A stretch of DNA of 64,000 nucleotides from a virus (IMGVR_UViG_3300020577_009596:1-64000), one strand, 5' to 3'. Positions 19-22,191 are shown, counted from the stretch's first letter. Notes: a model not told the origin generated them from the sequence alone. Made by a program: numbers and translations.

Positions 19-279
19 TCACAACTTCTCCAAGTCTGCGAGGGCGGCGAGTATGTCGCCGTGACACTGCTTAGGACTACACCAGCATCCGAGAGTCCGT
101 CCTCTCAGCTCTGACAGACTCTCTAGGAGGTCCGGCTGACTCGTAAGCCACGAGCGATACGCATCTAGACACGCCTCTCGGCTGTCGAAGTCCTCGAGCT
201 TGAACGGATTACCCCACTTCGACGGTCTTCCTATGTAGACGTCGTAGGGAGCCTTCTTACAGTGAACAACCGTCGTCAT
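19..279 (-). CDS. DUF4326-family protein
   Basis: VYIGRPSKWGNPF and LRGRTLGCWCSPKQCHGD motifs typical of DUF4326. Confidence 0.85.
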   Translation of the reverse strand: MTTVVHCKKAPYDVYIGRPSKWGNPFKLEDFDSREACLDAYRSWLTSQPDLLESLSELRGRTLGCWCSPKQCHGDILAALADLEKL

Positions 280-1082
280 GACAACTTGACTTGGTTGGAA
301 TCCAGAGCGACGAATGTAGGAGCTAAATCTTCGCCCATGAACTGGTCGATGAGAGCGAGTCCGTCATAGCCGCGACGCTTAAGACCTTCACGAACTGCCG
401 GGATGTATACGAGGTCTTGAATGTTCTCGCCCTCGAATGGCGAATGGCCGGCGATCTCAGGGCAGGAGAACTCGTAGTCGCCTTCGGGGTAGACCTTGAA
501 GTTGATACCTTGGACCCCAGCCTCCCTAGCAATGTCGACCAGCTCTGCGGCTCCCTTCGCGTCGTTGAGACCGAGGTCGAGCGGGTTCTTGATTGAGACG
601 AATCCGCTATACATCCTCGCACCGGGCTGGTCTTCGACGAAAGTATTTGCCGACGACTTCTTTGTCGTGAGGAAGATGGGCGGCTCGTGGTCGTCTTTGT
701 AAGCTCCCCGATATACCTTTGCAGGATTGCCTCGCTTGTCGACGACCTTGGTCCCGGCGAGCCACTCCTGAACCTTTGACTTCTGCTTCGGCTCCCTCAC
801 CCCACCCTCCGGCGGCAGCGGCTTGCCCCGGCTCTCGCCCGACTCGACCGCCCGCCGCTCCTCGGGGCTGGCGTCGACGAGCACCTCCGCCGGGATGAAC
901 TCGCCGCCCTTGTACGTCTTGCCCTTGATCGTCACCCCGCCCTTAGGGGCGTGAGCGTAGAGGGTCGGCGAGACGGGGCGGCCGTACTGGTCCTGGACCT
1001 CAAGGACGGACTGGATCGGGGCGTCCCCGCGGCGGCTGCCGGAGACGAGCGGGGTCGAGAAGATGTCGTCGAGTACGGGCAT
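276..1082 (-). CDS. Polyvalent-protein-type ADP-ribosyltransferase-like (ART-PolyVal) effector with N-terminal HAPKGG tag
   Basis: WLAGTKVVDKRGNPAKVYRG...IFLT...IKNPLD...GYDG pattern; N-terminal AHAPKGG..GGEFIP segment shared with the portal fusion. Confidence 0.6.
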   Translation of the reverse strand: MPVLDDIFSTPLVSGSRRGDAPIQSVLEVQDQYGRPVSPTLYAHAPKGGVTIKGKTYKGGEFIPAEVLVDASPEERRAVESGESRGKPLPPEGGVREPKQKSKVQEWLAGTKVVDKRGNPAKVYRGAYKDDHEPPIFLTTKKSSANTFVEDQPGARMYSGFVSIKNPLDLGLNDAKGAAELVDIAREAGVQGINFKVYPEGDYEFSCPEIAGHSPFEGENIQDLVYIPAVREGLKRRGYDGLALIDQFMGEDLAPTFVALDSNQVKLS

Positions 1083-1096
1083 GAGTAAATCCTACC

Positions 1097-1420
1097 TTAC
1101 AGGGTCGGGACGACCGTCCTGACGACGTACCCGTCCTCGTTCCTCAGTATAGTCCCGTCGGAGGCCCTCACCTCGGCCATCACCAGACGACCGTTCACGA
1201 CGACGGCCTCCTCCGCCCCGGTGCGGCAGTGAGACACACGGTGGCCGTCCCCCTCGCTATGGACGTGGCCGAACCCGCAGAACGCGCACCTCTCAGTCTC
1301 GCTCCGCTCTCCGGGTCTCGTCAAGAGCAGGTAGGCCGTCCCGCCGACGACCTCGTACCGCGGGACTACCGCTCGGCGACGGGCCTCGTGCCTCTTGTCG
1401 AACTTCGCGTCAGTCGTCAT
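1097..1420 (-). CDS. Hypothetical protein, possible Zn-binding (CAFC...H.H...HC)
   Basis: ORF with GGAGG RBS and Cys/His cluster. Confidence 0.55.
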   Translation of the reverse strand: MTTDAKFDKRHEARRRAVVPRYEVVGGTAYLLLTRPGERSETERCAFCGFGHVHSEGDGHRVSHCRTGAEEAVVVNGRLVMAEVRASDGTILRNEDGYVVRTVVPTL

Positions 1421-1518
1421 CTCGAACCTCCGTCTCCTACTATACCGCGAAGCCGGGATAGGCGGGTTAGTCGAGTTTTCTAGGAATAGGGCTATCGCTC
1501 AGTCGCCGCGGTAGCTAA

Positions 1519-1601
1519 GATAGTCGAGTTAGGCGGGTCTCGACGGGGTACCCCCTACCCCTAGCCGGGTGAGTCGGATTAGCCGAGTCTCTACGAGGTA
1601 T
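1519..1601 (+). repeat. Left 83-bp imperfect inverted repeat built of 9-bp TAGNCGRGW units (extra triplet at about 1451-1476)
   Basis: Reverse complement of 2713-2795 matches 21 of the first 22 and 33 of the last 40 nt. Confidence 0.85.
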
Positions 1602-1604
1602 CCC

Positions 1605-2723
1605 ATGCCCCCGATCCGTAAGAAGATCTCCCCCAGCGTCGTAGTCGAAGTCCACCGATTCCTCTCTCGGTACATCGCCCTGAGCGAGACCGAGATCCGT
1701 GTCGCCTCCACCTGGGCTGTCGCAGCTTGGTGCTCTGAAGCGTGGAGCCGGTTCCCCCACCTCGCCGTGACCTCCCCCGAGAAGCGGTGTGGGAAGACCC
1801 GATTCCTCCAGCTCCTCGAGAAGGTCTGTCCTAGGCCCTTCCATACCGCTAGTATCTCACCGGCGGCGATGTACCGGATGATCGAGCAGGAGCGACCGAC
1901 CCTCCTCCTCGACGAGGCCCAGTCGATCAGCCGCCGCGGGTCAGAGTCCTCAGAGGTTCTACGAGAGATCCTCAACGCAGGGATCGACGCCGACTCTGTC
2001 GTCATACGGGTAGGCGGCTCAAACATGGACGAGATCAGAAAGTTCTCCGTCTACAGCCCGAAGGCGATCGCTCTCATCGGGAGTCTCGACGGAGTGCTCG
2101 CCGACCGCTGCCTCCCGATTCACCTCACTCGAAAGACGAAGGACGACAAGGTCGAGTTCTACAACCACCGCGTCGTCATCGAGGAGTCGAAAGGTCTCAA
2201 GGAGAGGCTTGAGAAATGGTCGACCGACAATCTCAAGAAGGTTCAGGAGGAGTACGACCGGACTGAGCCCTTCGAGATCGATAACGACCGCATGGCGGAC
2301 CTCCTCCGCCCCCTCCAGGCGATCCTCGCCGTCACGGAGCCGACTTCGATCGACCTACTGAGAAACTACGCTCAAGTCGCTGAGGAGAAGAACCGCCGGT
2401 CCGAGATGCTGTCTCCAGGGACCTTGGTACTTATCGCCTGTAAGGAGGCGTTCGAGGAGCGGGAGAGGGTCGTCAAGAAGATGGGGAAGCTGGTCGGTAG
2501 CGTCGAGCCCAACTTCCTTCCGACCGACACCCTTATCGAGTACCTCTGTAAGCGGACAGAGGAGCCGTGGTCTCGATGGTCTAAGGGGAACAACATCACC
2601 CCAGAGGCTCTCGCCAACCTCCTTCGCCCCTACGAGGTGAGGTCTGAGAGGAACCGGGATCAGTCGTCTCGGGGTTACTACCGACACCGGTTCGAGACCG
2701 CGTGGAACCGCTATACCCCGTAG
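1605..2723 (+). CDS. DUF3631-family replication-type P-loop NTPase
   Basis: SPEKRCGKT Walker A, LLLDEA Walker B, C-terminal EEPW...LANLLRPYEVRS...RGY...AWNRY; start moved to MPPIRKK (GAGG RBS). Confidence 0.8.
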   Translation: MPPIRKKISPSVVVEVHRFLSRYIALSETEIRVASTWAVAAWCSEAWSRFPHLAVTSPEKRCGKTRFLQLLEKVCPRPFHTASISPAAMYRMIEQERPTLLLDEAQSISRRGSESSEVLREILNAGIDADSVVIRVGGSNMDEIRKFSVYSPKAIALIGSLDGVLADRCLPIHLTRKTKDDKVEFYNHRVVIEESKGLKERLEKWSTDNLKKVQEEYDRTEPFEIDNDRMADLLRPLQAILAVTEPTSIDLLRNYAQVAEEKNRRSEMLSPGTLVLIACKEAFEERERVVKKMGKLVGSVEPNFLPTDTLIEYLCKRTEEPWSRWSKGNNITPEALANLLRPYEVRSERNRDQSSRGYYRHRFETAWNRYTP

Positions 2724-2795
2724 AGACTCGCCTATCCCAACTAACCCAGCTATCCGGGCGGGCGTACCCCTATAGACCCGCCTATCTCGACTATC
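2713..2795 (-). repeat. Right 83-bp imperfect inverted repeat (iteron-like 9-bp units)
   Basis: Mirror of 1519-1601; overlaps the last codons of the DUF3631 gene. Confidence 0.85.
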
Positions 2796-2807
2796 CCGGT
2801 TTCCCGG

Positions 2808-5800
2808 CTACTCCGCCAGCCCTATCCTCTTGAAGTAAGCGTAGCACCGGGGGAACTGACTCCGGAACGTCTCCATCCCGCCCTCGGTCCCGTACGCCAA
2901 CCTGCAAGCCTCCGCGAACCCCTCGACCTCGTCGGTGCGGGCGTAGTTGCTCAGCTGCCCCCGACCCATCTCCGCCCGCCACGCCTGGACGAACTCCGGG
3001 TCGCCACTCAGCTGGAAGTGCTTGCGATCGTCCGACTGGTCGAGAGCGTGACCGACCTCGTGAGCCAGGACGCCCCTCTGGTCCACGCTCGGACCGCCCG
3101 GCCCGGTCACCAGCTCGCCCGTCGCCGGGTCGTAGAAGCCGTAGCAGGTAGTCCACCGGTCCCTCGGCGGCGGGCTCGCCTCCCCGGCGTACCAGGCCTC
3201 CGTCACGGCCTCGGCGGTTGGAGCCTCTGTCAGCTTGGTCACCCGGCCGCTCAGACGCTCGTAGGCGGTCCGGGGGAGCCGCGAGAGGACCGAGGCAGTG
3301 ACGGGCGAGATCGGGTTGGGCGGGGCGAGAGAGGGCTCCTCGGACGGCTCGCTCTGGGTTGCGGGCCTTGATCCGACCATCAGCGGCTCCAAAGCCGGTC
3401 CGAACTCTTTCTGACCGTCGACGTAGGCGAGGAACGCCTCAGACAGGAACTCACCGTAGCTGGTCTTGGCATATCGACCCAACTTGTCGGCTAGATCGGC
3501 GTACTCCTCGGGGACCGGTCCGGCCAGTTCCTTGTTCGTAAGACCGGCGCGGTGCTGTAGAACGTGACCGAACTCGTGAATGATCGTGCTCTCGATCGGG
3601 TCTATGCCGGTCTTCGAGTGCCAGCCGGTCCTGTCCTTGAGAGTCTCGAACTTCTCCTTGGGGAGACCGAAGTGAACTCCCTTGCCGTCAGTCCGGAGAG
3701 CGATCGTGTCACCTTTGTCGATCACTACGAACTTGGGGTCCTTGCCGAGAGTGATCTGGAAGACCTTCTCGCCCTTCGCTTTGAGGTCCTTGGCCTCCTC
3801 CGCCGACACTTGCCGCTTGATTCCGGTCGTCGTCGAGGCCGTGTTAGTCCCTCCGGACTGCCAGACGACCTTGATCGAAGCCGGGTCAATATTGAATCGA
3901 CGGCAGAGATCGTTCAAAGTTCGTTCAACGACCGGAGCGACGGTCTTGTGGACTCGATCGGGAATCTTGACTGAGGTCTTCTCAGAAGCAGGCTCCCCTT
4001 CGACCCTCGCCCTCTCCTCCGGCGTCGCCCGGTCCATCACGTCCGACGGGATGAACTGCCCGCCCGTGAACTGCTTGCCGGCGACGGAGACTCCCCCCTT
4101 CGGAGCGTGAGCCGCGGCGTACTGGGTCTGCGGGACCGTCCCCGGTCCGGTCAGCCGGAGATAGGACTTCGCCTTCTCCGAGTCCGAGTACTCCAGCTCG
4201 TCCACGACCACCCTCAGGTCGAGCGGGGCCAGCAGCTTCGTATACTTTCGTCCCTCGCCCGCCCGCACATACGCCAACGTCGCGTGCGGCTCGTACTCGG
4301 AGTGCGTCGCCGTGTTCGGCAGCCCGCCCAGGATCGAGTTCATCGCCCGGATCTGGGGGCTCGTGACGTCCACCTTCACGACGTCGTAGTCCTTGCCCGA
4401 GTCCTCCCCGTAGAAGCAGCTGACCCCGCCCAGCGTCAGCTCGAACGGACCCTTCCCCCTCAGGGCCTGCTGTACATCGCCCATCGTCACCCCGCCGTGA
4501 AACCCGTAGCGGACTGTGACGTGGGGCTTCTCCTCCCGGCCGTCGTCGGCGAGGTCGCAGTCCCGGACGAGGGCGGCCCGACTCAGCAGCTCGATCGCCG
4601 CCTGACCCTGCAGCGGGACCATGACGCAGCCCAGCTTCTCGCCGTACCGGGTCGGGTCCTGGCCCCGGCTCAGCCTCGTGAACCCGATCTCGGTCTTGTC
4701 GAACTCGGGCAGGTAGGTGTTCGACCCGCCGGGGAAGTACGGGGCGGTTGCGGCTGGAGCGGGGGCCGCGTCGTACTGCTGTGCGGAGTTCTGGGTCGAG
4801 ATCTTTGCGGGGAAGTTCTTCAACGGCTCGGTCAGGGTCGAGTCTGCTGGCGAGAACTCACCGACGTACAGAGCCTTCTCGAAAGCCTGCTGAGCCGGTC
4901 GTTGAGGGAGGTTCTTGTAATCGCCTATCCCGTACTTGAACGGCGTCGGGTCGATGATGTCGCCATCCTCGGTCTCGACCCAGGCGTGAGGAGTCGGGCT
5001 CGCTCTCTTGCTCTCGTCGAACCACTTGTCGCCCGCCGGCTTGCCGTACAAGTTACCTACGACGTACTTCACTGACTCGCCAGCGGCCTTTCTCGTGAGA
5101 TACTCCCTCCGAGCGTTCTCATAGCACTCGTTCGGCAGACCGTCCTTGACGACGGGCTCCGTCAGCCTCTCGACGTCGTTCTCACTCCACTCCTCGACGG
5201 GCTTGTTGCCGTCAGTAGATTTAATTCGACCAGTCTTCGGTCCCTGCGATAGAGGTGAGGAGCCTCCTCCCTGTCCACTTCTGGTGAACTGACCGCCGCC
5301 GGGTCCCGAGCCCTTGTGCTCGTGGCCGCTCGCGTCCGTGACGTAGGGGACCGGCTGGCGTCCAGACGAGTTCTGGGTCGGTTGGGACTGCGACGACGGT
5401 TGCTTGACGACCTGCAGGACGACGTGCAGGACGTCGCCTCGCTGCTCGCTCCTGACCTTCTTGAACGTCGTGTCGCGAGCCAGTATGACCTCGTTACCCC
5501 TCTCTCCGTACGAGGTCGCCATCGTCCCCTCAGGGGCGAGGATCTCGATGGACGCCCGCGGACCGCTCGTCTTCTTGAAGTACCTGTCGTTGTCCTTGGC
5601 CGACGGCGAGACCGACGTGAACGCCGGGTCCGTGAACTCAAACCCGTCGGGTGCGTTCCTCAGAGACTCGATGAACTTGCCGCCGTCTGCCCCGTCCACG
5701 CCCTTGGACACCAAGGCGCGATGGAACTTACAGTTCGACGGGACGGGCCGCATGCAGGCGTCGAGCGACTCAACGACCCTGGCGTAGTACGGGTCGACCT

Positions 5801-7898
5801 TGCCGGACCTCAGTCCGGCATTCACCTCGCGTCCGTCCCTGTTGTACTTGCCGAGGTCGCTCGCCAGCTCGGCCTTCCTGACCAGCTCTGGGGGAGGGGG
5901 CTGCCAGCCGGGGGTCCAGCTCGGGTTGTGCACCCTCGGGAACTCCTCGTCGGTCAGTCGCGGTCCCGCGATCGACCCCAAGATCTCGGACGAGGACAGC
6001 TCCCGGTAGTCGCCGTCGTCGGTCTCTCGGCCGCCCGACGCCTCGTCGCCGGACCGAGCCTCGCGAGGGGCCGTCGGCTTGGGTCCGACCAAGTCGCCCG
6101 TCGACGAGGAGCCACTTTCGGGCGACTTGGTCGGGACGACCCTGCCGCTCTTGAGCTTGAACCACTTCCCAGACGGCCCCTGCCAGACCTCACCCTCCCG
6201 TCGCTGGCCGTAGGCGACCGGCTGCCGCGAGTTGAACGATGGCCCGAACCCGCTCGGAGACTGCGGCGAGGGCTGACCGACGGGAGGCCCGAACCCTCCG
6301 TCCGGACCAACCCGCGTCGGCTGGGCCTGCTGAGGCGCGGGCTGACCGGGCTGGGGCGTCCCCGGAGGGCCTCCCGGCGTCGGGGGAGCCCCTGGACCGC
6401 CCATCCCCATCGGTCCGGCGTTCGGGTCGGGCGGCGGCTGGACGACGTCGTCGCCCTCCTCGGGTCGCGAGTAGCCTGCGGCCTCCCGCAGCTCGTCGAC
6501 CTTGATCGGCACCTTGAGCTCGACCATCGTCTTGCCGCTGGCGACCTTCTTCTCGGCCTCGAGGTCAGGCAGCACGCTCTTGAACCGCACCGGGAACCGA
6601 GCCCACTTGAAGTTGTACTGCTTCAGGGGCTTGATCAGGTCGCGAGTGAGCACCTCGTCCAGGCGGTTGGTGTCGTAGACGAGGATCTCGTCCTTCGTCG
6701 CCTTCGCGAAGTTGGCCCGGCCCGAGCCGCCCAGCCCCGAGTCGTTGTCCGCGCCGGCACTCATGCTCTGGCCGACGATCAGCCGCTCGATGTGGCGGTC
6801 GAAGTACTCGCTGATGAGGTCGTGCAGGGCCTTGAGCCCCGCGTCGTTCATGCTCAGCTGCTCGACCGCGTTCCAGTTGCCCGCCGGGTTCCGGGGCACG
6901 ACGAACGCGGCCTTGCCGATGATCTTGTTGGCGTTGGCCTCCTGCTGCCTCTTGGCCTGGTCGTTCCCCCACGGGAAGTTGAAGATCATCATGTCCATCT
7001 GGCCGACGGACTGCATGTACGCGAGCATCCACGTCAGGGCGTCGGTGCGGATCAGGTAGTGCCAGTAGACGAGCCCGCGGAGGCCGAGGCCCTGGACCGA
7101 CCCGGCCAGCTCGCCCTCGAAGTAGTCCGCCTTCTCACGGATGTGCTGGTGGATCGCGAACCGGTTCCGCCACGTCGGCCGCTGCAGGACGAGGGCCATG
7201 CCGCCGCGGTCGGTCGAGCGGATGTCGCCCCACTGGCCTTGGGTCGCCCCGTTGGACGAGTACCAGCCCGCGGTCATGGCGTCCATGAGGATCGCCGGGA
7301 CGCCGTCGAAGGTGAACTGGATCGAGTCGCCGTGGACCGGGTCCCACCGCCGCAGGCTCCACAGGTCGTTCACGTCCGGGTTCCGCCAGTAGTTCCACTG
7401 GGTCCCGGCCCGGCCGAACCACACGCCGTCGAGGAGTGCTCGCTTGTAGGCGTCGAAGTCGGGGATCGCCTCCACGACCTTCGTCAGGGCGTCCCGCACG
7501 GCCCGCTGGTTGGGGTCGCGGTCGTCGTCCACGTCCAGCTGCCACCGGCGGTTGATCGTCGGGAGGATCCGCTCCTCGAGGAGACCCCGGATGAACGCGT
7601 CGCGACGCATCGCGCGGGCCTTGACCCACGAGTCCCGCATCGCCTCGTCGAACCGGTAGCTGTACGTCCGCGTCGCCGCGTTCAGCACCATGCTGAACTC
7701 TCGGGCGGGCGGGACGAGGTAGCCGTCTGGTCCTGTAAGAGGACTCCCATCTGGGAGCCGAAAGTCCTCGACCTTGAGGTTCTGGTTCGGCGGGACGACC
7801 TTGAACGCGGGCAGGTCCGGCATCGCCCGACCCCCGACCTGGACGGAGGAGGACGAGGAGACGCCGGACGAGCCGGAGGGGATGAACGGGAGCGGCAT
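2808..7898 (-). CDS. Portal protein (DUF935/Mu gp29-like) fused to ART, Cys-protease-like, 2H phosphoesterase and two zincin domains
   Basis: N-terminal ~490 aa portal-like (GLGLRGLVYW...LIVGQSMS...LTRDLIKPL); ART FHRA..FTSVS..NEVIL; C-H-D (ECYENA/PHAWV/IIDPT); HVT and HAT 2H motifs; HEFGH and HEVGH. Confidence 0.75.
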   Translation of the reverse strand: MPLPFIPSGSSGVSSSSSVQVGGRAMPDLPAFKVVPPNQNLKVEDFRLPDGSPLTGPDGYLVPPAREFSMVLNAATRTYSYRFDEAMRDSWVKARAMRRDAFIRGLLEERILPTINRRWQLDVDDDRDPNQRAVRDALTKVVEAIPDFDAYKRALLDGVWFGRAGTQWNYWRNPDVNDLWSLRRWDPVHGDSIQFTFDGVPAILMDAMTAGWYSSNGATQGQWGDIRSTDRGGMALVLQRPTWRNRFAIHQHIREKADYFEGELAGSVQGLGLRGLVYWHYLIRTDALTWMLAYMQSVGQMDMMIFNFPWGNDQAKRQQEANANKIIGKAAFVVPRNPAGNWNAVEQLSMNDAGLKALHDLISEYFDRHIERLIVGQSMSAGADNDSGLGGSGRANFAKATKDEILVYDTNRLDEVLTRDLIKPLKQYNFKWARFPVRFKSVLPDLEAEKKVASGKTMVELKVPIKVDELREAAGYSRPEEGDDVVQPPPDPNAGPMGMGGPGAPPTPGGPPGTPQPGQPAPQQAQPTRVGPDGGFGPPVGQPSPQSPSGFGPSFNSRQPVAYGQRREGEVWQGPSGKWFKLKSGRVVPTKSPESGSSSTGDLVGPKPTAPREARSGDEASGGRETDDGDYRELSSSEILGSIAGPRLTDEEFPRVHNPSWTPGWQPPPPELVRKAELASDLGKYNRDGREVNAGLRSGKVDPYYARVVESLDACMRPVPSNCKFHRALVSKGVDGADGGKFIESLRNAPDGFEFTDPAFTSVSPSAKDNDRYFKKTSGPRASIEILAPEGTMATSYGERGNEVILARDTTFKKVRSEQRGDVLHVVLQVVKQPSSQSQPTQNSSGRQPVPYVTDASGHEHKGSGPGGGQFTRSGQGGGSSPLSQGPKTGRIKSTDGNKPVEEWSENDVERLTEPVVKDGLPNECYENARREYLTRKAAGESVKYVVGNLYGKPAGDKWFDESKRASPTPHAWVETEDGDIIDPTPFKYGIGDYKNLPQRPAQQAFEKALYVGEFSPADSTLTEPLKNFPAKISTQNSAQQYDAAPAPAATAPYFPGGSNTYLPEFDKTEIGFTRLSRGQDPTRYGEKLGCVMVPLQGQAAIELLSRAALVRDCDLADDGREEKPHVTVRYGFHGGVTMGDVQQALRGKGPFELTLGGVSCFYGEDSGKDYDVVKVDVTSPQIRAMNSILGGLPNTATHSEYEPHATLAYVRAGEGRKYTKLLAPLDLRVVVDELEYSDSEKAKSYLRLTGPGTVPQTQYAAAHAPKGGVSVAGKQFTGGQFIPSDVMDRATPEERARVEGEPASEKTSVKIPDRVHKTVAPVVERTLNDLCRRFNIDPASIKVVWQSGGTNTASTTTGIKRQVSAEEAKDLKAKGEKVFQITLGKDPKFVVIDKGDTIALRTDGKGVHFGLPKEKFETLKDRTGWHSKTGIDPIESTIIHEFGHVLQHRAGLTNKELAGPVPEEYADLADKLGRYAKTSYGEFLSEAFLAYVDGQKEFGPALEPLMVGSRPATQSEPSEEPSLAPPNPISPVTASVLSRLPRTAYERLSGRVTKLTEAPTAEAVTEAWYAGEASPPPRDRWTTCYGFYDPATGELVTGPGGPSVDQRGVLAHEVGHALDQSDDRKHFQLSGDPEFVQAWRAEMGRGQLSNYARTDEVEGFAEACRLAYGTEGGMETFRSQFPRCYAYFKRIGLAE

Positions 7899-7942
7899 CG
7901 CGGTGCCCGGACGAGGAGCACCCTGGCATCAGACGGACTGAC

Positions 7943-8173: not shown

Positions 8174-8358
8174 CGGTCTTCTCCCTGAGGTTCATTCAGA
8201 CCGAGCCAGATCTTCTCGTTCTCGGTCAGGGGCTTGACTCCGACGCCGCTCCTCGCGTCTTTACGACGACTGAGGAACGACGAGAAGATTCTCAACTCGT
8301 CCCGATCTGACTCGGGGAGTTTCTTCTCTTCCATCAGCTTCTCGAGTTCAATACTCAT
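8170..8358 (-). CDS. Hypothetical protein
   Basis: Overlapping stop/start with neighbour. Confidence 0.5.
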   Translation of the reverse strand: MSIELEKLMEEKKLPESDRDELRIFSSFLSRRKDARSGVGVKPLTENEKIWLGLNEPQGEDR

Positions 8359-14185: not shown

Positions 14186-14362
14186 CGCTTCCTCCGTGCT
14201 TGCTTCGCTATTGCAACCAGGCACCAGTAGACCATGAGTCGTCGCCGGTTCATGTTCGATCCCGATTGGGGTAGAAAAACTCCACGATCTTGATGATCAG
14301 CATGGCGGCCATGACTACCACAACAAGACCGCCGCTTATGACAGCCAGTAAACTTTCATCGC

Positions 14363-14965
14363 TCATAGCGTCTCCCCCTCCATCGCCACCGCCTTCCGCA
14401 GTGCGTCCAACTCGGCCTCGTCCTCCGGGGAGAGGGGTAGGGGCCGCCAGTGAGTTGGATTCCATGTGATGTCCCGAGGGTGCAACTTGAAGACGATGAC
14501 TTCTTCCCACTGAAGAACGCCGTCAACACTTCCGCAGGAACGCTTGGACGGCTTCATCGCACCGAACACCGGAACGCCACACTTGTACGCCATGAACAGC
14601 GACCCGTCTTTCGGTGCCGTCTCGATCGGCCGCCACCGCTCGTCCACCTCCACGCGGGTCAGCAGGTTACGGAGCCGAGCGTTCTCGGTTTCGAGGGTGG
14701 CAATCGTTGCGTCAGATCGGCCTCTTTCGGAAGCCGCCGCCAACGACTCTTCCTTGAGCCGGGTGACTTCGGCGAGGGCCGCATCGTGTTCAGCCCGCAG
14801 TGCGGTGGCTTCCTCGGCGGCGGCGAGCAGGGCGACATAGGCTTCGCGAGATACATTCCCGAACCGATAGTGGTAGTGCCCCTCGCCCGTGTCCATCCAC
14901 GGCGTTGAGTCGCTTGTGGCTCGCAACTCCGCGATCCGCTCCGGTGTCAGCGCGGTGTCACTCAT
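14363..14965 (-). CDS. DUF551-like phage protein with coiled coil
   Basis: WRPIETAPKDG...PTHWRPLP. Confidence 0.7.
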   Translation of the reverse strand: MSDTALTPERIAELRATSDSTPWMDTGEGHYHYRFGNVSREAYVALLAAAEEATALRAEHDAALAEVTRLKEESLAAASERGRSDATIATLETENARLRNLLTRVEVDERWRPIETAPKDGSLFMAYKCGVPVFGAMKPSKRSCGSVDGVLQWEEVIVFKLHPRDITWNPTHWRPLPLSPEDEAELDALRKAVAMEGETL

Positions 14966-15240
14966 GACGTTCCTCCGTGTAGTTCGTTGAACAATGCCGT
15001 GTCGTTCGCGACGCACGCTTCCAACTCCGCCACCCGCTCACGCAGGCTCGCGATCTCCTCGGCTTGCCGCCGCACCTCGGCCACGAGAGCGAGGCATGTC
15101 TCGCGGTCGAATCGCACCACAGGCTTGATCCCGTGCTTAGCAAGCCACTTCGCGTCCGCCCCGCACGGCTGCTCTTCTGCCACTCGCTCCAACTCGCTCA
15201 GCGGGATCACGCGGCCGTCCGCCGTGATGGTGTCGCTCAC
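14962..15240 (-). CDS. Ead/Ea22-like protein
   Basis: FDRETCLALVAEVRR, shared with 22223..22831. Confidence 0.5.
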   Translation of the reverse strand: MSDTITADGRVIPLSELERVAEEQPCGADAKWLAKHGIKPVVRFDRETCLALVAEVRRQAEEIASLRERVAELEACVANDTALFNELHGGTS

Positions 15241-15430
15241 TTCATTGCCTCCATGAATGCAGAGACTCCGAGAAGAACACCCATCGCCAGAAACGTGGGC
15301 ACGAGTATCCACGACAGGATGCGAATCGACCGCCAAGAGTCATGAGTCGCGTCGTACAGATTCTTGGCAGCGGCAAGCCCGCATATCAGACTGCCGAAGG
15401 CGAACACGACGACATCAGGCTGTGTGGTCA

Positions 15431-15700
15431 CTACTCGCTCCTGTTGAGAATCGCTGCGGCAAGCGCGGCGGCCGTGACTGACTTGTGCCACTGAATGCGT
15501 CCGTCAAACTCGGCCCCGTCACGCATGAATGTTTGCTCTCTTGCCCGTCGCATATCAGCTTCGTCGCTACACACCTTCGCACACGCCTTCCTCTCAGCAC
15601 GCACAGCCGCGTCGATGGCCTGTCGCAGCCGGTCGCGAGCATCGTAATACAGGGCAGTCCGAATAACCCGCAGGTGCCGGTCCAGTTCGTCGTCGCTCAT
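15431..15700 (-). CDS. Hypothetical protein
   Basis: AVRAERKACAKVC...AAAILNR motif common in small phage proteins. Confidence 0.55.
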   Translation of the reverse strand: MSDDELDRHLRVIRTALYYDARDRLRQAIDAAVRAERKACAKVCSDEADMRRAREQTFMRDGAEFDGRIQWHKSVTAAALAAAILNRSE

Positions 15701-16185
15701 GATGCGTTGCCCTCTCCACGACTGATCGCAAGGTCTTCCAGAAACAACACAAACGACACTCGCAATTCGTCGTCTCGCGTGGTGCTTAGCAATTTCTCAG
15801 CAATCGCGATGCACTTCGCGGTTCGCTCAAGGTGCATGTTCCCACGATTGAGGCTGGACACCTCGAACAGCAGACCACGCAAGGCTTGCAGTTCATCCCA
15901 CCTGTCCTCCGGCCAGTTCAGCGTCACCTTCATCTCAGCACCCTCCACAGCACCCACGCCGCCAACCCGATCCCACAACACCACGCGGCGGCGATGACCG
16001 TGGCGAGCGTGTATAGCCGTTTCATGATGCCCGCCTGACTTCAGACGCTGAGCCATCTCATACGCTTCATCCAGCGGCCACGACGCAAGGCAAGACGGCG
16101 GATGCCACCAACCGCGAAGGTTTTGCAGCCATCCGCCTTCGATCAGGTACAGGACCTTTTCTTCGCCCGTGATAGTCGCCATCAC
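15697..16185 (-). CDS. Hypothetical protein (may be two merged small ORFs)
   Basis: ORF downstream of GGTTATACT motif; internal RBS and ATG near 15933. Confidence 0.4.
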   Translation of the reverse strand: MMATITGEEKVLYLIEGGWLQNLRGWWHPPSCLASWPLDEAYEMAQRLKSGGHHETAIHARHGHRRRVVLWDRVGGVGAVEGAEMKVTLNWPEDRWDELQALRGLLFEVSSLNRGNMHLERTAKCIAIAEKLLSTTRDDELRVSFVLFLEDLAISRGEGNAS

Positions 16186-16233
16186 TTCACCTCCGTCAGT
16201 GGCTGCATACGCGGCATCCAGTTTAAGTATAAC

Positions 16234-18231
16234 CTAATCGTCCCGCCCGACCACCTGCGGGCTCCAGTCGGGGACGCGGTGGTGGCTGAGGAGGAAGGCG
16301 TCCGCGTCGTCGGGGCTGCGTCGGAGCCGCTTCTTGACCTCGTCCTTGCTCTCGACGAACCGGCAGCCGTTCCCGCGGACCTCGTAGAACGGGGTGAGCA
16401 GCTGGATCTTCATCCGGTCGAGGACCTCCGGCGGGAGGCGGCTGAGGTCGATCAGGCCCGCCGCGCCGAGGGCCGCCCCCTCGCACCAGATCTCGGACCG
16501 CGTGTTGTAGTACATCGGCATCCCGGTCGGGCTGATCATGCCGGACGAGGAGCCGACCGTCACCATCCGCCAGCCCTCGAACTCGTCGCGGTGCGAGTGG
16601 ATCCCGATCCCGTAGCCGCCGTCGCCCTCGAGCACGACCACGACCTCCTCCGGCCTCAGCTTGGGCGCGCCGGGGAACGTCGCCCACGAGTCGTAGAGGG
16701 AGGCGTACTCCCGGCACAGCTCCTTCAGCCGACCCGCGCTGCGGCCGGGGCTCCAGCCGTTGTGGGCCTCGTGGTGGAGGCTGACCGGCCCGCTCCGGAC
16801 GTGGAACACGGTGTCGTCGTCGCCGTAGCCGCTCGCGTCGACTCCGATCGTGACGCCATGCCGCTGCAGCCAGCACGAGACCAGCTGCTGCCGGGGGTCG
16901 GGTCGGGGCGTGACGCAGACCGTCCAGACGTCCTCGCCCCAGACCGTGTCGATCCCGCCCGTCGGCCGGACGCCCATGCACGCCGCTAGGAACCACGGGC
17001 CGGGTCGCCACCACTTGCCGCCTCCGACGACGCCAGATCCGTCGCAGTCCGGACATCGCTGATCCGCCACCGGACCGGTCGTCCCGCTCGACTCAGTACC
17101 GTCTCCAGATGGTCCCTCGCCTCCCCCTCGCTGTAGAAGTATCGGCGGTGAGACAGCCTGCCCTCGTTCCACATCAGACGGAAGACCGGCTGCTCGCTCC
17201 TCTCCTCCCAACCGATCACCGTCCCGCCACTCTCTGCGACTGACTTCAGCTTCTCCTCCAGACGCTCCCGTGTCCCCTCCGGTCCGGTCCCCCAGACCGT
17301 GAGATGGTCCTCCGCGTTCCTGTACCTCAGACGGAATTGACTCATCTCTCGCTCCTCTGCACTTCGGACACGGCCGCGCGGGGGGCCACTCGACGTCTCG
17401 CGGCTTGACGTCGGCGGGGTCTACGGGCGTACAGCGGGAGTGGACCCACTGGTCGACCTGGTGGACGGAGACTGCGTTGGGGACGACGGGCGGCAGGCCG
17501 TCCAGCTCGGCTCGGATGTTCGGGTGATTGAGGGCGGAGAGGCTGATCACGTCCCACTTCGGGTTCCCGTCGCGGTCGGTCGCGAGGTCCTCGAGGTAGC
17601 TCTGCGTGCTCGTCGTGTACGGGTTGCCGATGGCGAGCCAGGCGTGGTCCTGGCCGGGAATGTACATCGTGTCGGTCGCGTTCCAGTAGACCGCGTCCAC
17701 GCCCTCGGCCTCGTCGAAGACGAACAGCATGTTCGGGCGGTGACGACCGTGGAACCCCTCGCGGCTCGCCGCCGTGATGCCCTCCGCCCAGTGGTCCGGG
17801 TGGTCGTACAGCTTGGGGGCCTTGGGCATCAGGAACGTCGGGAGCGGGACCCTCGCCCGCATGATCAGGAGGCGGACCTCCGTCCACAGCACCGTCTCGA
17901 CGTGGGCGCGGGTCGGGGCCGTCGTCACCGCCACGCCGGGGTCCCGCGTGTAGAACCACCAGACGATCGCGCAGGCTGCGACGAACGACTTCCCCAGCGA
18001 GTGACCAGAGTTCACCTTGACCCGCCGCCCCTTGGCGAGCTGGGACAGCACCCTCTCCTGGTCCGGGGTCAGCGTGACGCCGAGGACGTCCCGGCAGAAG
18101 CCGACGGGGTCGTACCGGTACTTGGTCAGGTCGGGGAGGTCCTGCCCCGCCGGTCCCTCCAGGACGGCGAGGATCCGCCTCTTGGGGTAGAGGCGGCGGA
18201 GGTGCTTGGCGAGTCTCTCGGCGGGCGTCAT
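16234..18231 (-). CDS. terL: Terminase large subunit with in-frame insertion
   Basis: SGHSLGKS Walker A, VFDEAEGV Walker B, AIGNP coupling motif, IGVDASGYGDD and RSPDDADA nuclease motifs. Confidence 0.9.
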   Translation of the reverse strand: MTPAERLAKHLRRLYPKRRILAVLEGPAGQDLPDLTKYRYDPVGFCRDVLGVTLTPDQERVLSQLAKGRRVKVNSGHSLGKSFVAACAIVWWFYTRDPGVAVTTAPTRAHVETVLWTEVRLLIMRARVPLPTFLMPKAPKLYDHPDHWAEGITAASREGFHGRHRPNMLFVFDEAEGVDAVYWNATDTMYIPGQDHAWLAIGNPYTTSTQSYLEDLATDRDGNPKWDVISLSALNHPNIRAELDGLPPVVPNAVSVHQVDQWVHSRCTPVDPADVKPRDVEWPPARPCPKCRGARDESIPSEVQERGGPSHGLGDRTGGDTGASGGEAEVSRREWRDGDRLGGEERAAGLPSDVERGQAVSPPILLQRGGGEGPSGDGTESSGTTGPVADQRCPDCDGSGVVGGGKWWRPGPWFLAACMGVRPTGGIDTVWGEDVWTVCVTPRPDPRQQLVSCWLQRHGVTIGVDASGYGDDDTVFHVRSGPVSLHHEAHNGWSPGRSAGRLKELCREYASLYDSWATFPGAPKLRPEEVVVVLEGDGGYGIGIHSHRDEFEGWRMVTVGSSSGMISPTGMPMYYNTRSEIWCEGAALGAAGLIDLSRLPPEVLDRMKIQLLTPFYEVRGNGCRFVESKDEVKKRLRRSPDDADAFLLSHHRVPDWSPQVVGRDD
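16986..17345 (-). CDS. Putative nested gene inside the terL insertion
   Basis: AGGAG RBS 7 nt before ATG; protein-like composition while the terL frame here is low-complexity. Confidence 0.5.
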   Translation of the reverse strand: MSQFRLRYRNAEDHLTVWGTGPEGTRERLEEKLKSVAESGGTVIGWEERSEQPVFRLMWNEGRLSHRRYFYSEGEARDHLETVLSRAGRPVRWRISDVRTATDLASSEAASGGDPARGS

Positions 18232-18249
18232 ACCGCTAGTCTAGCGGTT

Positions 18250-18459
18250 CTAGAAGATCATCCAATCGATCGGATCGTCCTCCGAGGTGATCGTCGCGAC
18301 GAGGTACTCCTTGAGGATCTCCTCACTGATCATCTGCCAGCCCTCGCAAGACTCGTCCCCGCACCGACACGGGAACGCTCGCCTCCCAGTCGCGTGGAGC
18401 TGCTCGACGGTCTTCCCAGACCGTTCGGCGTAGCCCTGCTCGAACTCGTCAAGCGTCAT
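18250..18459 (-). CDS. Hypothetical Cys-rich protein
   Basis: EFEQGYAERSG...PCRCGDESCEGWQM. Confidence 0.6.
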   Translation of the reverse strand: MTLDEFEQGYAERSGKTVEQLHATGRRAFPCRCGDESCEGWQMISEEILKEYLVATITSEDDPIDWMIF

Positions 18460-18854
18460 CCTCGTCCCCCGCCCTCGTCACGGACCCACTTGAGGCTCGG
18501 GACGTAACGCCCGCGTCCGGTCGCCGCTCGCTGGAGGAGGCCGTCTCGGACCATCCTCTTGACGATGCCCGCGACGGTCTGGTTGGTCACTCCGAGGCGG
18601 CGAGCGATCTGTCTCTGGTCGGCCCCCTGGCCGAGCATGGCTACGACGACCGACCGGCTCTTGGCGTCGGGTGAGCCCTTGACCACCGACCGCCAGCCCT
18701 CGCGGGACATCAGGCACTCGACCGCGTGCGGGCTCCGGGACGTCCCGAACCGCTCGCCGACCTCCTCGGCGACCTCCTCGCGAGAGTAGCCGAGCGAGAC
18801 CAGCTCACGGACCGCCTCCCGCTCCGCCTCCGTCCAGGACGGCCCCCGAGACAT
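18456..18854 (-). CDS. Double-HTH DNA-binding protein
   Basis: WTEAE..GYSREEVAEE (Myb/GcrA-like) and QRQIARRLGVTNQTV. Confidence 0.7.
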   Translation of the reverse strand: MSRGPSWTEAEREAVRELVSLGYSREEVAEEVGERFGTSRSPHAVECLMSREGWRSVVKGSPDAKSRSVVVAMLGQGADQRQIARRLGVTNQTVAGIVKRMVRDGLLQRAATGRGRYVPSLKWVRDEGGGRG

Positions 18855-18861
18855 CGGCACC

Positions 18862-19506
18862 TCACCCCACCGTCGTCGTGTAGTAGCCGGACGTCCGACC
18901 CACCCATCCCGACTGCAGCATCCGCTCGAAGTCGTAGCTGTACCGGTCGAGGTACTCCCCGGCCCGCTTGGCGAGGGCCAGCTCACCCCTGAGGTGGTCC
19001 TGCTGCGTCGTCAGGTTCTCGACGTGGGTGCGAGCCGCCGAGCCGACCAGGTTCTCGCCCTCTCCGACCCTGAGCCTGCCCGTCGCCTCCGCGTAGAACG
19101 CGAGGACCCTCTCGATCTTCTTGAGCGTCTTCTCCCGCTGGCCCCTGGCGTCCCGGAGCCACTCCCTCATGTGCCGGACGACGTCGACCGACTGGGCTCG
19201 CTGCCCCTGCTCGACGAGCTGGTCCACGACCTGGCTCAGGCACGCGCTGAGGACGGGGACGAGGTCCGCGTCGGGGTGCTGGGTCGCCCGCGGCTGACTC
19301 GCGTCGCCCGTCTCGTCGTACCGGCGTCGGCGGTCCGGGTCGCGAAGGAGGTCGTACGCCCGCTGGACCGCCTCGAACCGGGCCGCGGCCTCGGGGTCGC
19401 CGGGGTTCCGGTCGGGGTGGCTCGCCATCGCCAGCCGACGATACGCTTTGGTGATCGTTTTGAGCGAGGCGTTGCGGCGGACCTCGAGGGTCTCGTACGG
19501 ATTCAT
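18862..19506 (-). CDS. J-domain (DnaJ-like) protein
   Basis: NPYETLEV...KAYRRLA..HPDRNPGD..RRRYD. Confidence 0.9.
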   Translation of the reverse strand: MNPYETLEVRRNASLKTITKAYRRLAMASHPDRNPGDPEAAARFEAVQRAYDLLRDPDRRRRYDETGDASQPRATQHPDADLVPVLSACLSQVVDQLVEQGQRAQSVDVVRHMREWLRDARGQREKTLKKIERVLAFYAEATGRLRVGEGENLVGSAARTHVENLTTQQDHLRGELALAKRAGEYLDRYSYDFERMLQSGWVGRTSGYYTTTVG

Positions 19507-19520
19507 GTGAGGAGTATAAC

Positions 19521-20189
19521 CTATTCGGTCAGCGGGTCGGGGACGAGACGACGCTGCAGGCGACGGACGGCCTGGTTGATCAGCTGCCGGATCCGCTCCG
19601 AGCTGACCCCGAGGCGGTCGCCGATCTGCCTGTAGGTGAGCCGGTCGTGGAAGGACTGACGCACGGCCTCGTACTCGCGAGGAGGCAGGACCGACCGTAC
19701 TCGCTCCCACAGGTCTGAGTCCGGCCTCCTCCGGTCGGGCTCGTCTCCGACCGTGGTCGGGTCGGGGAAGGAGTCGAGCAGACCGTCGGTCTCGCGGCCG
19801 TGGGCGTACGACGTCTCGTAGTTGACGTAAGGGAGCGGCCTCGCTCGAGCGTCCGCCTCGCCCGGAATAAACTTCTCCCTCGGGAACCGTCTCCGCAGAG
19901 GCCCGAGTCGCTGGTCCTCCTCGTGGATCAGGTCCCGGATGCGGTTCTCGGACCACCACCTCGCGTAGGTGCTGAACTTGATCCCGCGACGGACGTCGAA
20001 CAGCCGGACCGCCTCGACGAACCCGAGACAGGCCGCCGCGAACACGTCGTCGTACGGGATGCGGCGGTTCCGTCGGTGCCACTTCCCGGCGATGATGTGG
20101 AGGAGCGGCCAGTTCGTCCGCACCTCGCGGTCGAGGTCCTCGGGAGTCAGGCGGTGCTCTACCGGAACGTCGGGCAGCTTCTCAGCCAT
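19521..20189 (-). CDS. Sigma-70 family sigma factor
   Basis: AVRLFDVRRGIKFSTYARWW (region 2); TYRQIGDRLGVSSERIRQ (region 4). Confidence 0.9.
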   Translation of the reverse strand: MAEKLPDVPVEHRLTPEDLDREVRTNWPLLHIIAGKWHRRNRRIPYDDVFAAACLGFVEAVRLFDVRRGIKFSTYARWWSENRIRDLIHEEDQRLGPLRRRFPREKFIPGEADARARPLPYVNYETSYAHGRETDGLLDSFPDPTTVGDEPDRRRPDSDLWERVRSVLPPREYEAVRQSFHDRLTYRQIGDRLGVSSERIRQLINQAVRRLQRRLVPDPLTE

Positions 20190-20781
20190 CGGCGAACTCC
20201 GCGAGGGCGGGCCGCAGCTTCTCGACGGCCGACTGGTGGAGCAGCCACGCCCGCTCCTTGGAGACGCCCATCGCCCGGCCCGCGGCCGAGAACGGCATCC
20301 CCTCGAGGTAGACCCGGCGGAGGATCCAGTACTCCCGGTGGCTCAGCACCCGCTCGGCGACCGACCAGACCTCCTCCGCCTCCCGCTCCGTCAGGGCCGG
20401 ACAGTCCACGGCCAGCACGTCCGGCTCGTCGCTCCCGTCCGGGACGAGGCCGTCCTCGACCAGCGAGTAGGTCCGCCCGTCCCGCCCGAGACGCCTCTGG
20501 TAGTTGACGAGCGCGTTGTGGACCGCCCGGCCGAGGTACGCCCCGAACGAGTAGGGTCGGCCGGACGCGGGGTTGATCTTGCGGGGGTCGTAGCCGCGGG
20601 CCGCCGCGACCAGGGCCTCGAACCCGGCGAGGTCGAGCTCCCGACGATTACGGACGAGGGCGTTGTGTCTCCTGCAGAACTTGGAGACGAGCTTGCGGAC
20701 GAGGGCGTTGTGCCTGCGGTACAGGTCCTCGACCCGGTCCCGCTGCTCGGCGGTGAGGGGTCGCGGGGCGGCGACGGGCAT
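20182..20781 (-). CDS. Sigma-70 family sigma factor (second paralogue)
   Basis: ALVAAARGYDP...SFGAY; FSAAGRAMGVSKERAW. Confidence 0.85.
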   Translation of the reverse strand: MPVAAPRPLTAEQRDRVEDLYRRHNALVRKLVSKFCRRHNALVRNRRELDLAGFEALVAAARGYDPRKINPASGRPYSFGAYLGRAVHNALVNYQRRLGRDGRTYSLVEDGLVPDGSDEPDVLAVDCPALTEREAEEVWSVAERVLSHREYWILRRVYLEGMPFSAAGRAMGVSKERAWLLHQSAVEKLRPALAEFADG

Positions 20782-20811
20782 GGCGACGGGTCCCTGGAGT
20801 TGGTCGATCGG

Positions 20812-22191
20812 TCACCGACGGCAGGCTGCGAGCGACTCCCGCATCCTGCGGATCCCCGGACCGAACCGGCCGCCGAGGAAGTCGCCCTCCGGCACGGCGT
20901 TCATCGGTCCCTGGATCCGACCGTCGGGGTTCTTCGGGTAGCTGTACGGCATCTGGTTCGCCGCGGTCCGCTCCTGAAGGTGCTGCCGGAGCCACAGCTG
21001 GCGGAGCGTGTCGTTGAGCGATGAGCTGGGGTCGATCGGTCCGGGACGCTCGGCGAACGAGTCGTATGTGTCCAGCGGCTGGGGCTGACCGGCCAGGGGC
21101 GGGATCTCGCCGGTCGGCTGGCCCATGAACGACGGGCAGTAGGGGGACGGCGGGCGGCAGCTGGCGAGGGCCTCCCTCATGCCGGCACACGGGTCGGTCA
21201 TGACGTCGCGGGGCAGGGCCGGAGGGATCGTGTCGCCGGGATACTCGACCCTCGGGAGCGGAGAAGCCGCCTCGTACCGCGAGTTCTGGGTCGGCGACTG
21301 GAGACTCTTCGAGTGCCGGGCAGCCAGCATGTCAATCGCGTCCGCTCTCTTCTCGACTCTGGTAGCCACTCGGTTCCCCTCGGGGTCCAATACTACCCAG
21401 CCCTCCTTCTGAGTTATCTGGTTGGCTCCGTTGACGGTCTTGAATCCCGTGTATCTCTCCTTGACCAGTCTGCCGATCGGCTTCCCGTCGTGCGACACAT
21501 CGAATCCACCGTCCCCCGCGGGGGTCAGCTTGGAGGACGCGGCGATCGCCATCGGGGACTTCGGGTCCTTGAGCATCTTGAGTCGGTCCTGCTCCTTCAC
21601 AAGCGGGGCGATGATTTTCATCCTCGCCTTGACCACCTTTGCCGAGTTGCCCTTGCCGTCGTTGACGATCTGCATGATCCTTTGATTGATAGCCTCGATC
21701 TGCGAGTCCACAGAACCGGAGGAGTCTCCAGTATGCGGCGTGGAAGCGGACGACCCTTGACCCTTACCGTTGTCTGACGACCCGCCAGAGCCGCTTCCGC
21801 TCGTGAACTGACCACCGCCCGGTCCTGACTCCTTGTGCTCGTGGCCTGACGAGTCGGTCACGTACATCTGAGGACCCCCGCAAGCCGCGAGCGTCTCCCG
21901 CATTCCGGCACAGGGGTCCGGCGGGGCGGCGAAGTTGGCCTCGATCGCCCGGCCCTCCGGGTACGAGCCGACGCTGTATTGCGGGCTCTGAGGCGGGGTG
22001 CCGACGTTGCCGCCCTCGAACGGGTTCTCGCCGTAGGGGGCCGGGGGCTGCGGGGGGTGACGGTCGATCGGGTTGCACCGGTTGAGTGCCCGCGTCAGCC
22101 GCTTCATCTGGAAGGCGGAGGCGAGGTCCCCGGCGACGGCGGAGGCCTCGGACAGGTGCATCTTGGCTGCGTTCAGGTGGGCGTCGGACAC
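20812..22191 (-). CDS. Pro-rich repeat protein carrying a GHEHK-tag/TQNS cargo module
   Basis: Three MRE(T/A/S)LA(A/S)C repeats; YVTDSSGHEHKESGPGGGQFT and SPTQNSRY shared with the portal fusion. Confidence 0.7.
   Translation of the reverse strand: MSDAHLNAAKMHLSEASAVAGDLASAFQMKRLTRALNRCNPIDRHPPQPPAPYGENPFEGGNVGTPPQSPQYSVGSYPEGRAIEANFAAPPDPCAGMRETLAACGGPQMYVTDSSGHEHKESGPGGGQFTSGSGSGGSSDNGKGQGSSASTPHTGDSSGSVDSQIEAINQRIMQIVNDGKGNSAKVVKARMKIIAPLVKEQDRLKMLKDPKSPMAIAASSKLTPAGDGGFDVSHDGKPIGRLVKERYTGFKTVNGANQITQKEGWVVLDPEGNRVATRVEKRADAIDMLAARHSKSLQSPTQNSRYEAASPLPRVEYPGDTIPPALPRDVMTDPCAGMREALASCRPPSPYCPSFMGQPTGEIPPLAGQPQPLDTYDSFAERPGPIDPSSSLNDTLRQLWLRQHLQERTAANQMPYSYPKNPDGRIQGPMNAVPEGDFLGGRFGPGIRRMRESLAACRR

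Follow-up and report, generated by a model that had tools for sequence, protein, structure and literature searches.

We analysed the first 64 kb of a single virus contig of 101,556 bp (IMGVR_UViG_3300020577_009596; 65.7% GC), and this whole 64,000-nucleotide stretch is called the window below; the contig is 82% complete according to CheckV, and the record may be partial. The window encodes a portal-fused protein, P0001, and two smaller proteins, P0002 and P0003, in which short conserved peptides, here named tags A, B and C, stand ahead of effector-like modules, or cargos. Our main finding is that cargos are exchanged directly behind these tags, an exchange that, judged from the sequences compared, is real. 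The region encodes effectors built from modules, and these effectors probably travel in the phage head. As for the tags themselves, we lean slightly towards regarding them as address or handling modules that would load, keep and release effectors together with the genome, with the portal train being cut at the junction residues.

A portal fusion assembled from tagged modules

P0001 begins with a Portal_Mu carrier domain (PHROG portal match, 5e-26), which is followed, in order, by the joint PVAY, tag C, an ADP-ribosyltransferase (ART)-like module, the joint TQNS..PVPY, tag A, a cysteine-peptidase-like module, the joint TQNS-AQQY, a spacer, the joint PTRY, a 2H phosphoesterase (Pfam 2_5_RNA_ligase2, 4.8e-07), the joint QTQY, tag B, zincin 1 and zincin 2. 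Two HExxH regions (HEFGH and HEVGH) are present, with matches to Pfam ATLF (5.9e-05) and DUF6782 (2.2e-04) that both lie under the curated cut-off, and a homologue of zincin 2 is the tag B cargo of another protein, P0084. The ART-like module, with its R-S-E residues, and the Cys-His-Asp (transglutaminase-like) peptidase-like module were labelled by eye only, and neither has a Pfam match. The combination of Portal_Mu, 2H and two HExxH regions in one open reading frame (ORF) makes P0001 a member of the polyvalent-protein class. Indeed, at least two unrelated enzymatic domains share this polypeptide, its relative P0012 adds ART-PolyVal and ParB_N, and the fusion to a virion domain is given by Portal_Mu in a virus record with a terminase upstream.

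Tag A (YVTD[AS]SGHEHK.SGPGGGQFT) had been placed by the initial annotation, made from the sequence alone, in the portal fusion and in P0002, and we found it in both genes as a 65-nucleotide (nt) repeat with 82% identity at the DNA level. Tag B (AHAPKGGV..GK.[FY].GG.FIP...A[ST]PEER), assigned to the portal fusion and to the ORF at 276-1082 (P0003, residues 43-80), was likewise present in both, the two copies sharing 70% identity over 113 nt. Two further elements had been overlooked: a third copy of tag B at the contig end (101462-101556), with other cargo behind it, and a third tag, C (GEVWQGPSGKWFKLKSGRVVP), which lies just past the portal linker of P0001. That tags A and B are homologues could not be demonstrated, as hhalign aligned only the GGQF stretch, with 4% probability.

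The joints between modules also follow recurrent patterns. Cargos had been said to end in TQNS encoded by a shared 13-mer (GAGTTCTGGGTCG), and this 13-mer is exact at 4786, 5368 and 21281, where a chance expectation of ~0.31 matches applies even with one mismatch allowed. Beyond these three sites, TQNS was absent from all six frames of the 101.6-kb contig and from the other fetched proteins, which contain only the near-variants PTQAS (P0012) and TTQSS (P0089). All eight Tyr-ending peptides proposed to mark module boundaries were found. The pattern P[TV].Y, which was picked post hoc, occurs four times in the three proteins against 0.75 expected (P=0.0045, ~five-fold enriched), and all four copies in the portal fusion lie at module joints; other phage genes show no enrichment (9 vs 6.7 expected). 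The relatives used for this Tyr-joint pattern are not independent samples. Tyr stands at both borders of the spacer, which is kept in P0001 and in its relatives P0012 and P0100 at differing positions of the train.

P0002, the second carrier of tag A, had no match in Pfam, PHROG or NCBIfam, and the ESM Atlas returned neither a relative nor a fold. Its modules are flanked by three copies of a Cys-bracketed peptide (DPCAGMRETLAAC, DPCAGMREALASC and RRMRESLAAC, at residues ~92-104, 334-346 and the C-terminus).

Unrelated cargos are exchanged behind constant blocks

The two close relatives of the portal fusion, P0012 (1875 residues) and P0100 (1332 residues), have three parts in common with it, namely the 2H module, the C-terminal zincin and, at 72-79% identity, the portal; the three proteins differ in the middle (Table 1). 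The edges of the blocks coincide with the peptides PVxY, PTxY, QTQY and AQ[QR]Y. A second comparison involves five stand-alone genes, namely P0003, the gene at the contig end, P0097, P0091 and P0084, which have in common a leader (DIFSTPLVSGSRRGD), tag B and the linker ESGESRGKPLPPEGGV(R/K)EPK, with 68-100% identity. All five diverge at EGGV(R/K)EPK, and no two of the cargos behind this block are related (E>0.1 in every pairing). The genes thus combine a constant N-terminal part with sharply bounded, unrelated C-terminal domains, the arrangement by which polymorphic toxins are recognised. The same leader is also found in P0095, P0113 and a partial gene (L035), there ahead of tag A. These comparisons bear out two proposals of the initial annotation, that modules are swapped between carriers and that different cargo follows each tag copy.

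The contig-end cargo and that of P0091 were labelled 'GNAT-like' and 'ParB-like' by eye, and Pfam and NCBIfam gave nothing for either. Neither label was retained; the P0091 cargo, moreover, does not resemble the ParB modules found in P0012 and P0100.

Base composition agrees with the exchange. The suggestion that cargo DNA is less GC-skewed than its flanks held in part: coding-strand skew is ~0 for the cargos and reaches +0.1 to +0.18 for the Gly-rich tags, yet the portal domain likewise has a value of 0.00, and the real difference lies in the GC content of third codon positions (GC3). Swapped cargos have a GC3 of 0.67-0.81 versus 0.90-0.97 in the constant parts (0.95 both in the Portal_Mu domain and in the tag B and linker of P0003), and in P0003 the value drops abruptly from 0.95 to 0.67 at EGGVREPK. 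The lower GC3 marks the swapped cargos as compositionally foreign.

The contig ends provide a further example. The last 95 nt of the contig (101462-101556) equal window positions 787-881 at 94 of 95 nt, and the tag B encoded there on the minus strand leads to a different cargo of 123 residues and then to a glycosyltransferase gene starting MIVHVVLVAYDN. At the opposite end, behind the ART-like cargo and the DUF4326 gene, the first 22 nt carry the opening codons of this glycosyltransferase (VTVHVVL). Since both contig ends share these flanks, the tag B block and the glycosyltransferase start, they represent alternative cassettes, and the contig would correspond either to a circular genome with two cargo-cassette alleles in the sample or to tandem copies. 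Two exchange arms can be recognised: the complete leader/tag B block and, at the opposite border, the glycosyltransferase gene downstream. In a relative (L036), the portal is followed by a small gene, a leader-tag B gene and then the same glycosyltransferase.

In the window, the ART-like cargo of P0003 is accompanied by a DUF4326 gene (GC3 0.66) that overlaps the stop of the cargo gene and is translationally coupled to it. The two are probably one acquired cassette, and the DUF4326 product may be a partner or antidote gained along with the ART cargo; for this family a role in processing ADP-ribose-linked phosphates has been proposed (Iyer 2022, PMC9503650). No extra gene lies behind the contig-end cargo or that of P0097, at the place where polymorphic toxin systems have a cognate immunity gene.

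The tags recur in phages with different portals

To see how far the tags extend, we searched metagenomic and protein databases. A degenerate DNA pattern for tag A yielded 17 IMG/VR loci, all within large ORFs and with up to four copies per protein. When eight of these ORFs were compared with Pfam, three portal families and MuF appeared upstream of the tag, and topoisomerase IB or ADP-ribosyltransferase downstream. A tag A profile (A3) matched at least 65 proteins among 5.8 billion. Its carriers are Phage_portal, Portal_Mu, Phage_portal_2 and MuF, and its cargos include ART, topoisomerase I, RNA ligase, SNF2 helicase, GNAT, ParB, 2H, Zeta toxin, InPase, C39-like peptidase and HNH domains.

Tag B was found at 14 IMG/VR loci and gave 75 matches in a word-indexed search; HMMER, run exhaustively against 1.84 billion cluster representatives, recovered 756 matches with E<=1e-3, of which 346 reach E<=1e-10, with a maximum of five copies per protein. 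In bacteria its exact pattern is rare, being present in five genome contigs of a collection in which 185,579 species are represented by a single genome each. Its profile also matches proteins of Fimbriiglobus and Gemmata, a hint at a planctomycete host for the phage; tag B is carried by P0085 of Fimbriiglobus ruber and P0094 of Gemmata sp. SH-PL17. Tag C occurs beyond this phage in five further large phage ORFs, one of them with two copies. Large IMG/VR ORFs that have it include L045, L062 (two copies), L093 and L106, and in P0012 it takes another position. Overall, the carriers of the tags comprise four portal families and MuF, and the cargos ~15 unrelated domains. For one helicase-type tagged protein (P0096), inspection of its contig made neither a phage nor a conjugative-element nature evident.

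None of the three tags is covered by a family model in Pfam, NCBIfam or PHROG, and a literature text search found no phage paper containing their motif strings. A tblastn search with tags A and B against 50,697 GenBank phage records gave no match, which is weak evidence as the low-complexity filter was on. A sequence search of the PDB returned nothing for tag A and only a chance-level eL43 match for tag B (E=0.23).

Tags as proposed address modules and the evidence on other roles

All units share one grammar, in which a junction residue (Tyr for this lineage) is followed by tag A, B or C, a flexible Gly/Ser/Lys-rich linker and the cargo. In the mechanism towards which we lean, the tag would bind either a conserved component of the head or the packaged DNA, and the effector would thereby be loaded, retained and released along with the genome. 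Cutting of the portal train at the junction residues would leave each freed enzyme beginning with its own tag, and recombination would use the constant blocks as ordinary homology arms. The suggestion of the initial annotation that the tags are packaging or ejection signals fits their distribution and is plausible. A broader version is possible but doubtful. In it, the three tags would be labels for capsid cargo that are portable and independent of lineage, and any protein with one of them, whether N-terminal or behind a junction in a portal or MuF polyprotein, would be loaded and delivered with the DNA.

The position and the predicted structure of tag B bear on this proposal. In 177 of 197 proteins the last copy has 150 residues or more behind it, indicating that the tag precedes a domain. 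Several stand-alone proteins open with MAAAHAPKGG, MPAAHAPKGG or MPAEHAPKGG, so that the tag starts at residue 2-5, and others have just a conserved N-terminal peptide of 15-20 residues ahead of it. AlphaFold2, given an alignment of 14 sequences, predicted that two hairpins and two short helices form a compact structure; the predicted local distance difference test (pLDDT) score is ~90 over residues 10-40. Foldseek found nothing in the PDB at E<=0.001 for this fold, and an assignment to a known fold was set aside: the best VIA-align Z score, 3.3 for the TFIIE-alpha acidic domain, is not meaningful. The predicted fold of tag B and its frequent place at the start of stand-alone proteins lead us to favour an address module rather than a mere site of cleavage.

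Several observations weigh against this proposal. The tags are carried by four different portal families, which leaves no single obvious partner for them. Tag A taken alone is predicted weakly (pLDDT 61); in this model it resembles a linear motif needing a partner, and its role as a binding module is a guess. The database proteins often come from short contigs and may be truncated, which would inflate the count of 'N-terminal' tags, several of which do begin with Met. As to the cutting of the train, only 17 of 256 tagged proteins have the conserved C-terminal zincin, and we therefore rejected the zincin in cis as the general processing enzyme. Nor did the contig, most of whose head genes have no family match, yield a prohead protease when three of the several known families were sought at E<=1 (Mu-like_Pro, Peptidase_S78 and Peptidase_S49, but not the S77 family of T4). 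Finally, the N4 virion RNA polymerase and some other polyvalent proteins are packaged uncut (PMC5512222).

Among the alternatives, the one that survives best holds that the tags are merely sites for a maturation protease, either a prohead protease or the fused zincins, without any targeting function, and that the leader of stand-alone genes is a capsid-targeting peptide removed at the tag. We regard it as unlikely. Ahead of both tags there is indeed a common extended pattern of a hydrophobic residue, Arg, a hydrophobic or aromatic residue and a small residue, and in all lineages a conserved hydrophobic residue, often with Arg before it and a small residue after it, lies just upstream of both tags, as would suit such a site. 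In tag B, position -5 is R and position -4 is Y in 27, L in 17 and M in 12 of 95 sequences; in tag A, positions -7, -6 and -5 are R, F/L/Y/M and S/A, respectively. The initial annotation suggested that Tyr marks cleavage sites of a prohead protease, which is possible. The junction residue ahead of the tags varies among phages (Y, L, M, F or K) and is always Tyr in this lineage, as if it co-evolved with an enzyme, and in this lineage Tyr also stands ahead of the untagged 2H and spacer modules. Anthrax lethal factor prefers an aromatic residue just after the cut, and the weak ATLF likeness of zincin 2 is a lead only. Processing of polyvalent proteins by zincins has itself been proposed (Iyer 2017, PMC5512222). 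A cleavage site, however, would require neither the 40 residues of the predicted tag B fold nor the 11-13 residues that are invariant across distant phages, and where tag B begins at residue 2-5 there is nothing upstream to remove. Moreover, no candidate protease co-occurs with the tags among those looked for (Mu-like_Pro, S78, S49 and zincin).

It is less probable still that the tags act on the cargo, either as metal-binding or inhibitory pro-segments that silence the enzymes in the producer or as Lys/Gln sites for covalent attachment in the head. The invariant D, H, E, H, K and Q of tag A (D..GHEHK...GGGQF) do look ligand-like or reactive, and the train holds the Cys-His-Asp module that appears transglutaminase-like by eye. 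Specific inhibition is nevertheless hard to reconcile with one tag preceding ~15 unrelated folds and with the long flexible linkers between tag and cargo, and the Cys-peptidase-like module is absent from P0012 and P0100 on by-eye inspection of these two.

The weakest alternative, a role of the tag DNA and the TQNS 13-mer as recombination handles that are selected at the nucleotide level and shuffle effector cassettes, had been put forward in the initial annotation and is scarcely credible in view of the codons used. It could account for cargo swaps directly behind conserved blocks, for the near-identical tract of 95 nt that joins two cassettes and for the exact 13-mer in three places. To separate constraint on DNA from constraint on peptide, we compared the number of identical codons between tag copies with that expected from the codon usage of the phage itself. 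Identical codons were found at 12 of 19 same-residue positions in tag A (10.6 expected, P=0.32) and at 13 of 23 in tag B (12.7 expected, P=0.55), so that synonymous sites are no more alike than codon bias predicts. Given three TQNS peptides, identical T, Q and N codons in all three have a chance of ~0.1, a value into which the TC of the Ser codon and the preceding CG letters are not multiplied. The tags are also kept as peptides in phages of quite different sequence, TQNS is confined to its three sites, and the visible exchange arms are larger than either element. Codon identity at the level expected from codon usage indicates selection on the peptide rather than on the DNA.

Genomic setting

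The minus strand is the coding strand of the genes at 1-23 kb, and the positions of all features are given in Table 1. At the far end of the contig, the presumed head genes were almost blank in Pfam and PHROG, save for glycosyltransferases. Between P0002 and the terminase lie two sigma-70-like genes on the minus strand (19521-20189 and 20182-20781), with regions 2 and 4, and a helix-turn-helix protein (18456-18986, minus strand); the same two sigma genes are located upstream of the terminase in a relative (L034). The only plus-strand gene of the block (1569-2723) matches DUF3631 (8.5e-22) and is flanked by inverted repeats of ~83 nt with 80% identity (1519-1601 and 2713-2795). These repeats, together with the absence of the gene at the same position in the relative L036, give it the appearance of an inserted element. 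An AT-richer repeat of ~35-65 nt (core CTTTACTTCTCCCGATTAAGGGTTATACTCTTA) is present in at least eight intergenic copies on both strands and looks like a phage-specific promoter or regulatory element.

Table 1 Features of the window, with the remaining contig and the two close relatives of the portal fusion (window coordinates unless the contig is named; aa, amino acids)
Feature	Position	Strand	Details
P0001	2808..7898	(-)	Portal-fused polyvalent protein, 1696 aa; translation, Pfam, PHROG
Portal_Mu domain of P0001	6474..7616	(-)	Residues 95-475; constant N-terminal carrier; Pfam Portal_Mu 1.3e-33
Tag C in P0001	6132..6209	(-)	Residues 564-589, GQRREGEVWQGPSGKWFKLKSGRVVP, right after joint PVAY
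13-mer, (P)TQNS	5368..5380	(-)	End of ART-like module
Tag A, copy 1, in P0001	5283..5345	(-)	Residues 852-872, YVTDASGHEHKGSGPGGGQFT, then Gly/Ser-rich linker
13-mer, (S)TQNS	4786..4798	(-)	End of Cys-peptidase-like module
Spacer module of P0001	4655-4783	(-)	Residues 1039-1085, ~45 residues; Y-DAAPAPA..YFPGGSNTYLP.FD..EIGFTRLS.GQDPTRY
Tag B in P0001	3999..4118	(-)	Residues 1261-1300, after joint QTQY
Zincin 2 of P0001	2817..3293	(-)	C-terminal, HEVGH, residues 1536-1694; constant in P0001, P0012 and P0100
P0012			Order: portal, tag A, another zincin, spacer, tag C, unknown module, 2H, tag A, ART-PolyVal, tag B, ParB, zincin 2
P0100			Order: portal, spacer, truncated tag A, unknown module, 2H, tag B, ParB, zincin 2
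P0002	20812..22191	(-)	459 aa; N-terminal part, joint PQMY, tag A, Gly/Ser linker, cargo, TQNS-RY, Pro-rich C-terminal part
Tag A, copy 2, in P0002	21802..21864	(-)	Residues 110-130
13-mer, (P)TQNS	21281..21293	(-)	End of P0002 cargo
P0003 leader	957..1082	(-)	Residues 1-42, with DIFSTPLVSGSRRGD, ending PTLY
P0003 tag B and linker	786..956	(-)	Residues 43-99, ending EGGVREPK
P0003 cargo	279..785	(-)	Residues 100-268; ART-PolyVal PF18760, 7.1e-05, 24 bits, under cut-off
DUF4326 gene	19..279	(-)	86 aa; Pfam PF14216 5.3e-28
Glycosyltransferase, first codons	1..22	(-)	VTVHVVL; right-hand flank of the swap
Contig-end cassette	contig 101092-101556 (L033:17092-17556)	(-)	
Large terminase	16234-18231		Upstream of portal fusion
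AT-richer repeat copies	33013-33077, 62081-62145, 63076-63140, 63778-63842, 24888-24927, 26233-26272; contig ~64299, ~70437	both	

Relation to known systems

Phages carry enzymes in their heads that are injected ahead of gene expression, and we know of no loading signals described for such enzymes outside T4 and P1. If the tags are loading or handling signals, they would allow the injected arsenal of uncultivated phages to be listed simply, would explain the quick reshuffling of such arsenals and would offer a testable peptide handle for loading chosen proteins into capsids. Should they prove to be portable labels, they would provide a sequence signature for finding injected phage effectors in metagenomes. 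Even as processing sites only, they would help to identify the protease through the lineage-specific junction residue.

In bacterial polymorphic toxins, the motifs VENN (CdiA) and PxxxxDPxGL (Rhs) mark the border between the constant and variable parts, and homology there allows cassettes to be replaced. The tags resemble them as short conserved peptides at such a border. They differ in that the vehicle is a putative phage capsid instead of bacterial secretion, in that they stand before, not at the end of, the constant part in every unit, in that several of them alternate in one protein and in that no extra conservation is seen at the DNA level.

T4 equips its internal proteins and Alt with capsid-targeting sequences, which its prohead protease takes off, and P1 has the Dar system (summary in PMC5512222). 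In these systems, enzymes destined for injection are brought into the prohead by short N-terminal peptides or accessory proteins. The tags described here share no sequence similarity with them, span many lineages and four portal families, and are internal and repeated.

Polyvalent proteins join a virion domain (portal or MuF) to unrelated effectors such as ART, 2H, ParB and zincin-like domains, and are presumed to be injected together with the DNA, with processing by the zincins as a possibility (Iyer 2017, PMC5512222); portal-2H and portal-ART fusions have also been mentioned (Iyer 2022, PMC9503650). P0001 joins a portal to several effector domains in the same manner. The difference lies in the grammar of junction, tag, linker and cargo for each module, which extends to stand-alone genes; a term search of the text of PMC5512222 found no linker or boundary motifs.

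MuF toxins possess a constant head-associated N-terminal part and variable C-terminal toxins or effectors, often with a protective gene downstream (Jamet 2017, PMC5576092). The stand-alone genes studied here share the constant N-terminal and variable C-terminal parts. By contrast, their constant part consists of a leader, tag B and linker of ~100 residues, and a candidate partner gene (DUF4326) accompanies just one of the cassettes. PF04233 (MuF) did not match P0001, P0002 or P0003 at E<=0.1, although MuF carries the same tags in other phages, and a term search of PMC5576092 found no demarcation motif, linker or junction.

The carrier architecture is therefore that of the published polyvalent-protein class. 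What appears to be new, being undescribed in the sources searched, is the set of three conserved tags placed ahead of cargos, the way they alternate in a single protein, the fact that stand-alone genes employ them too, and a residue at the junction that is specific to the lineage.

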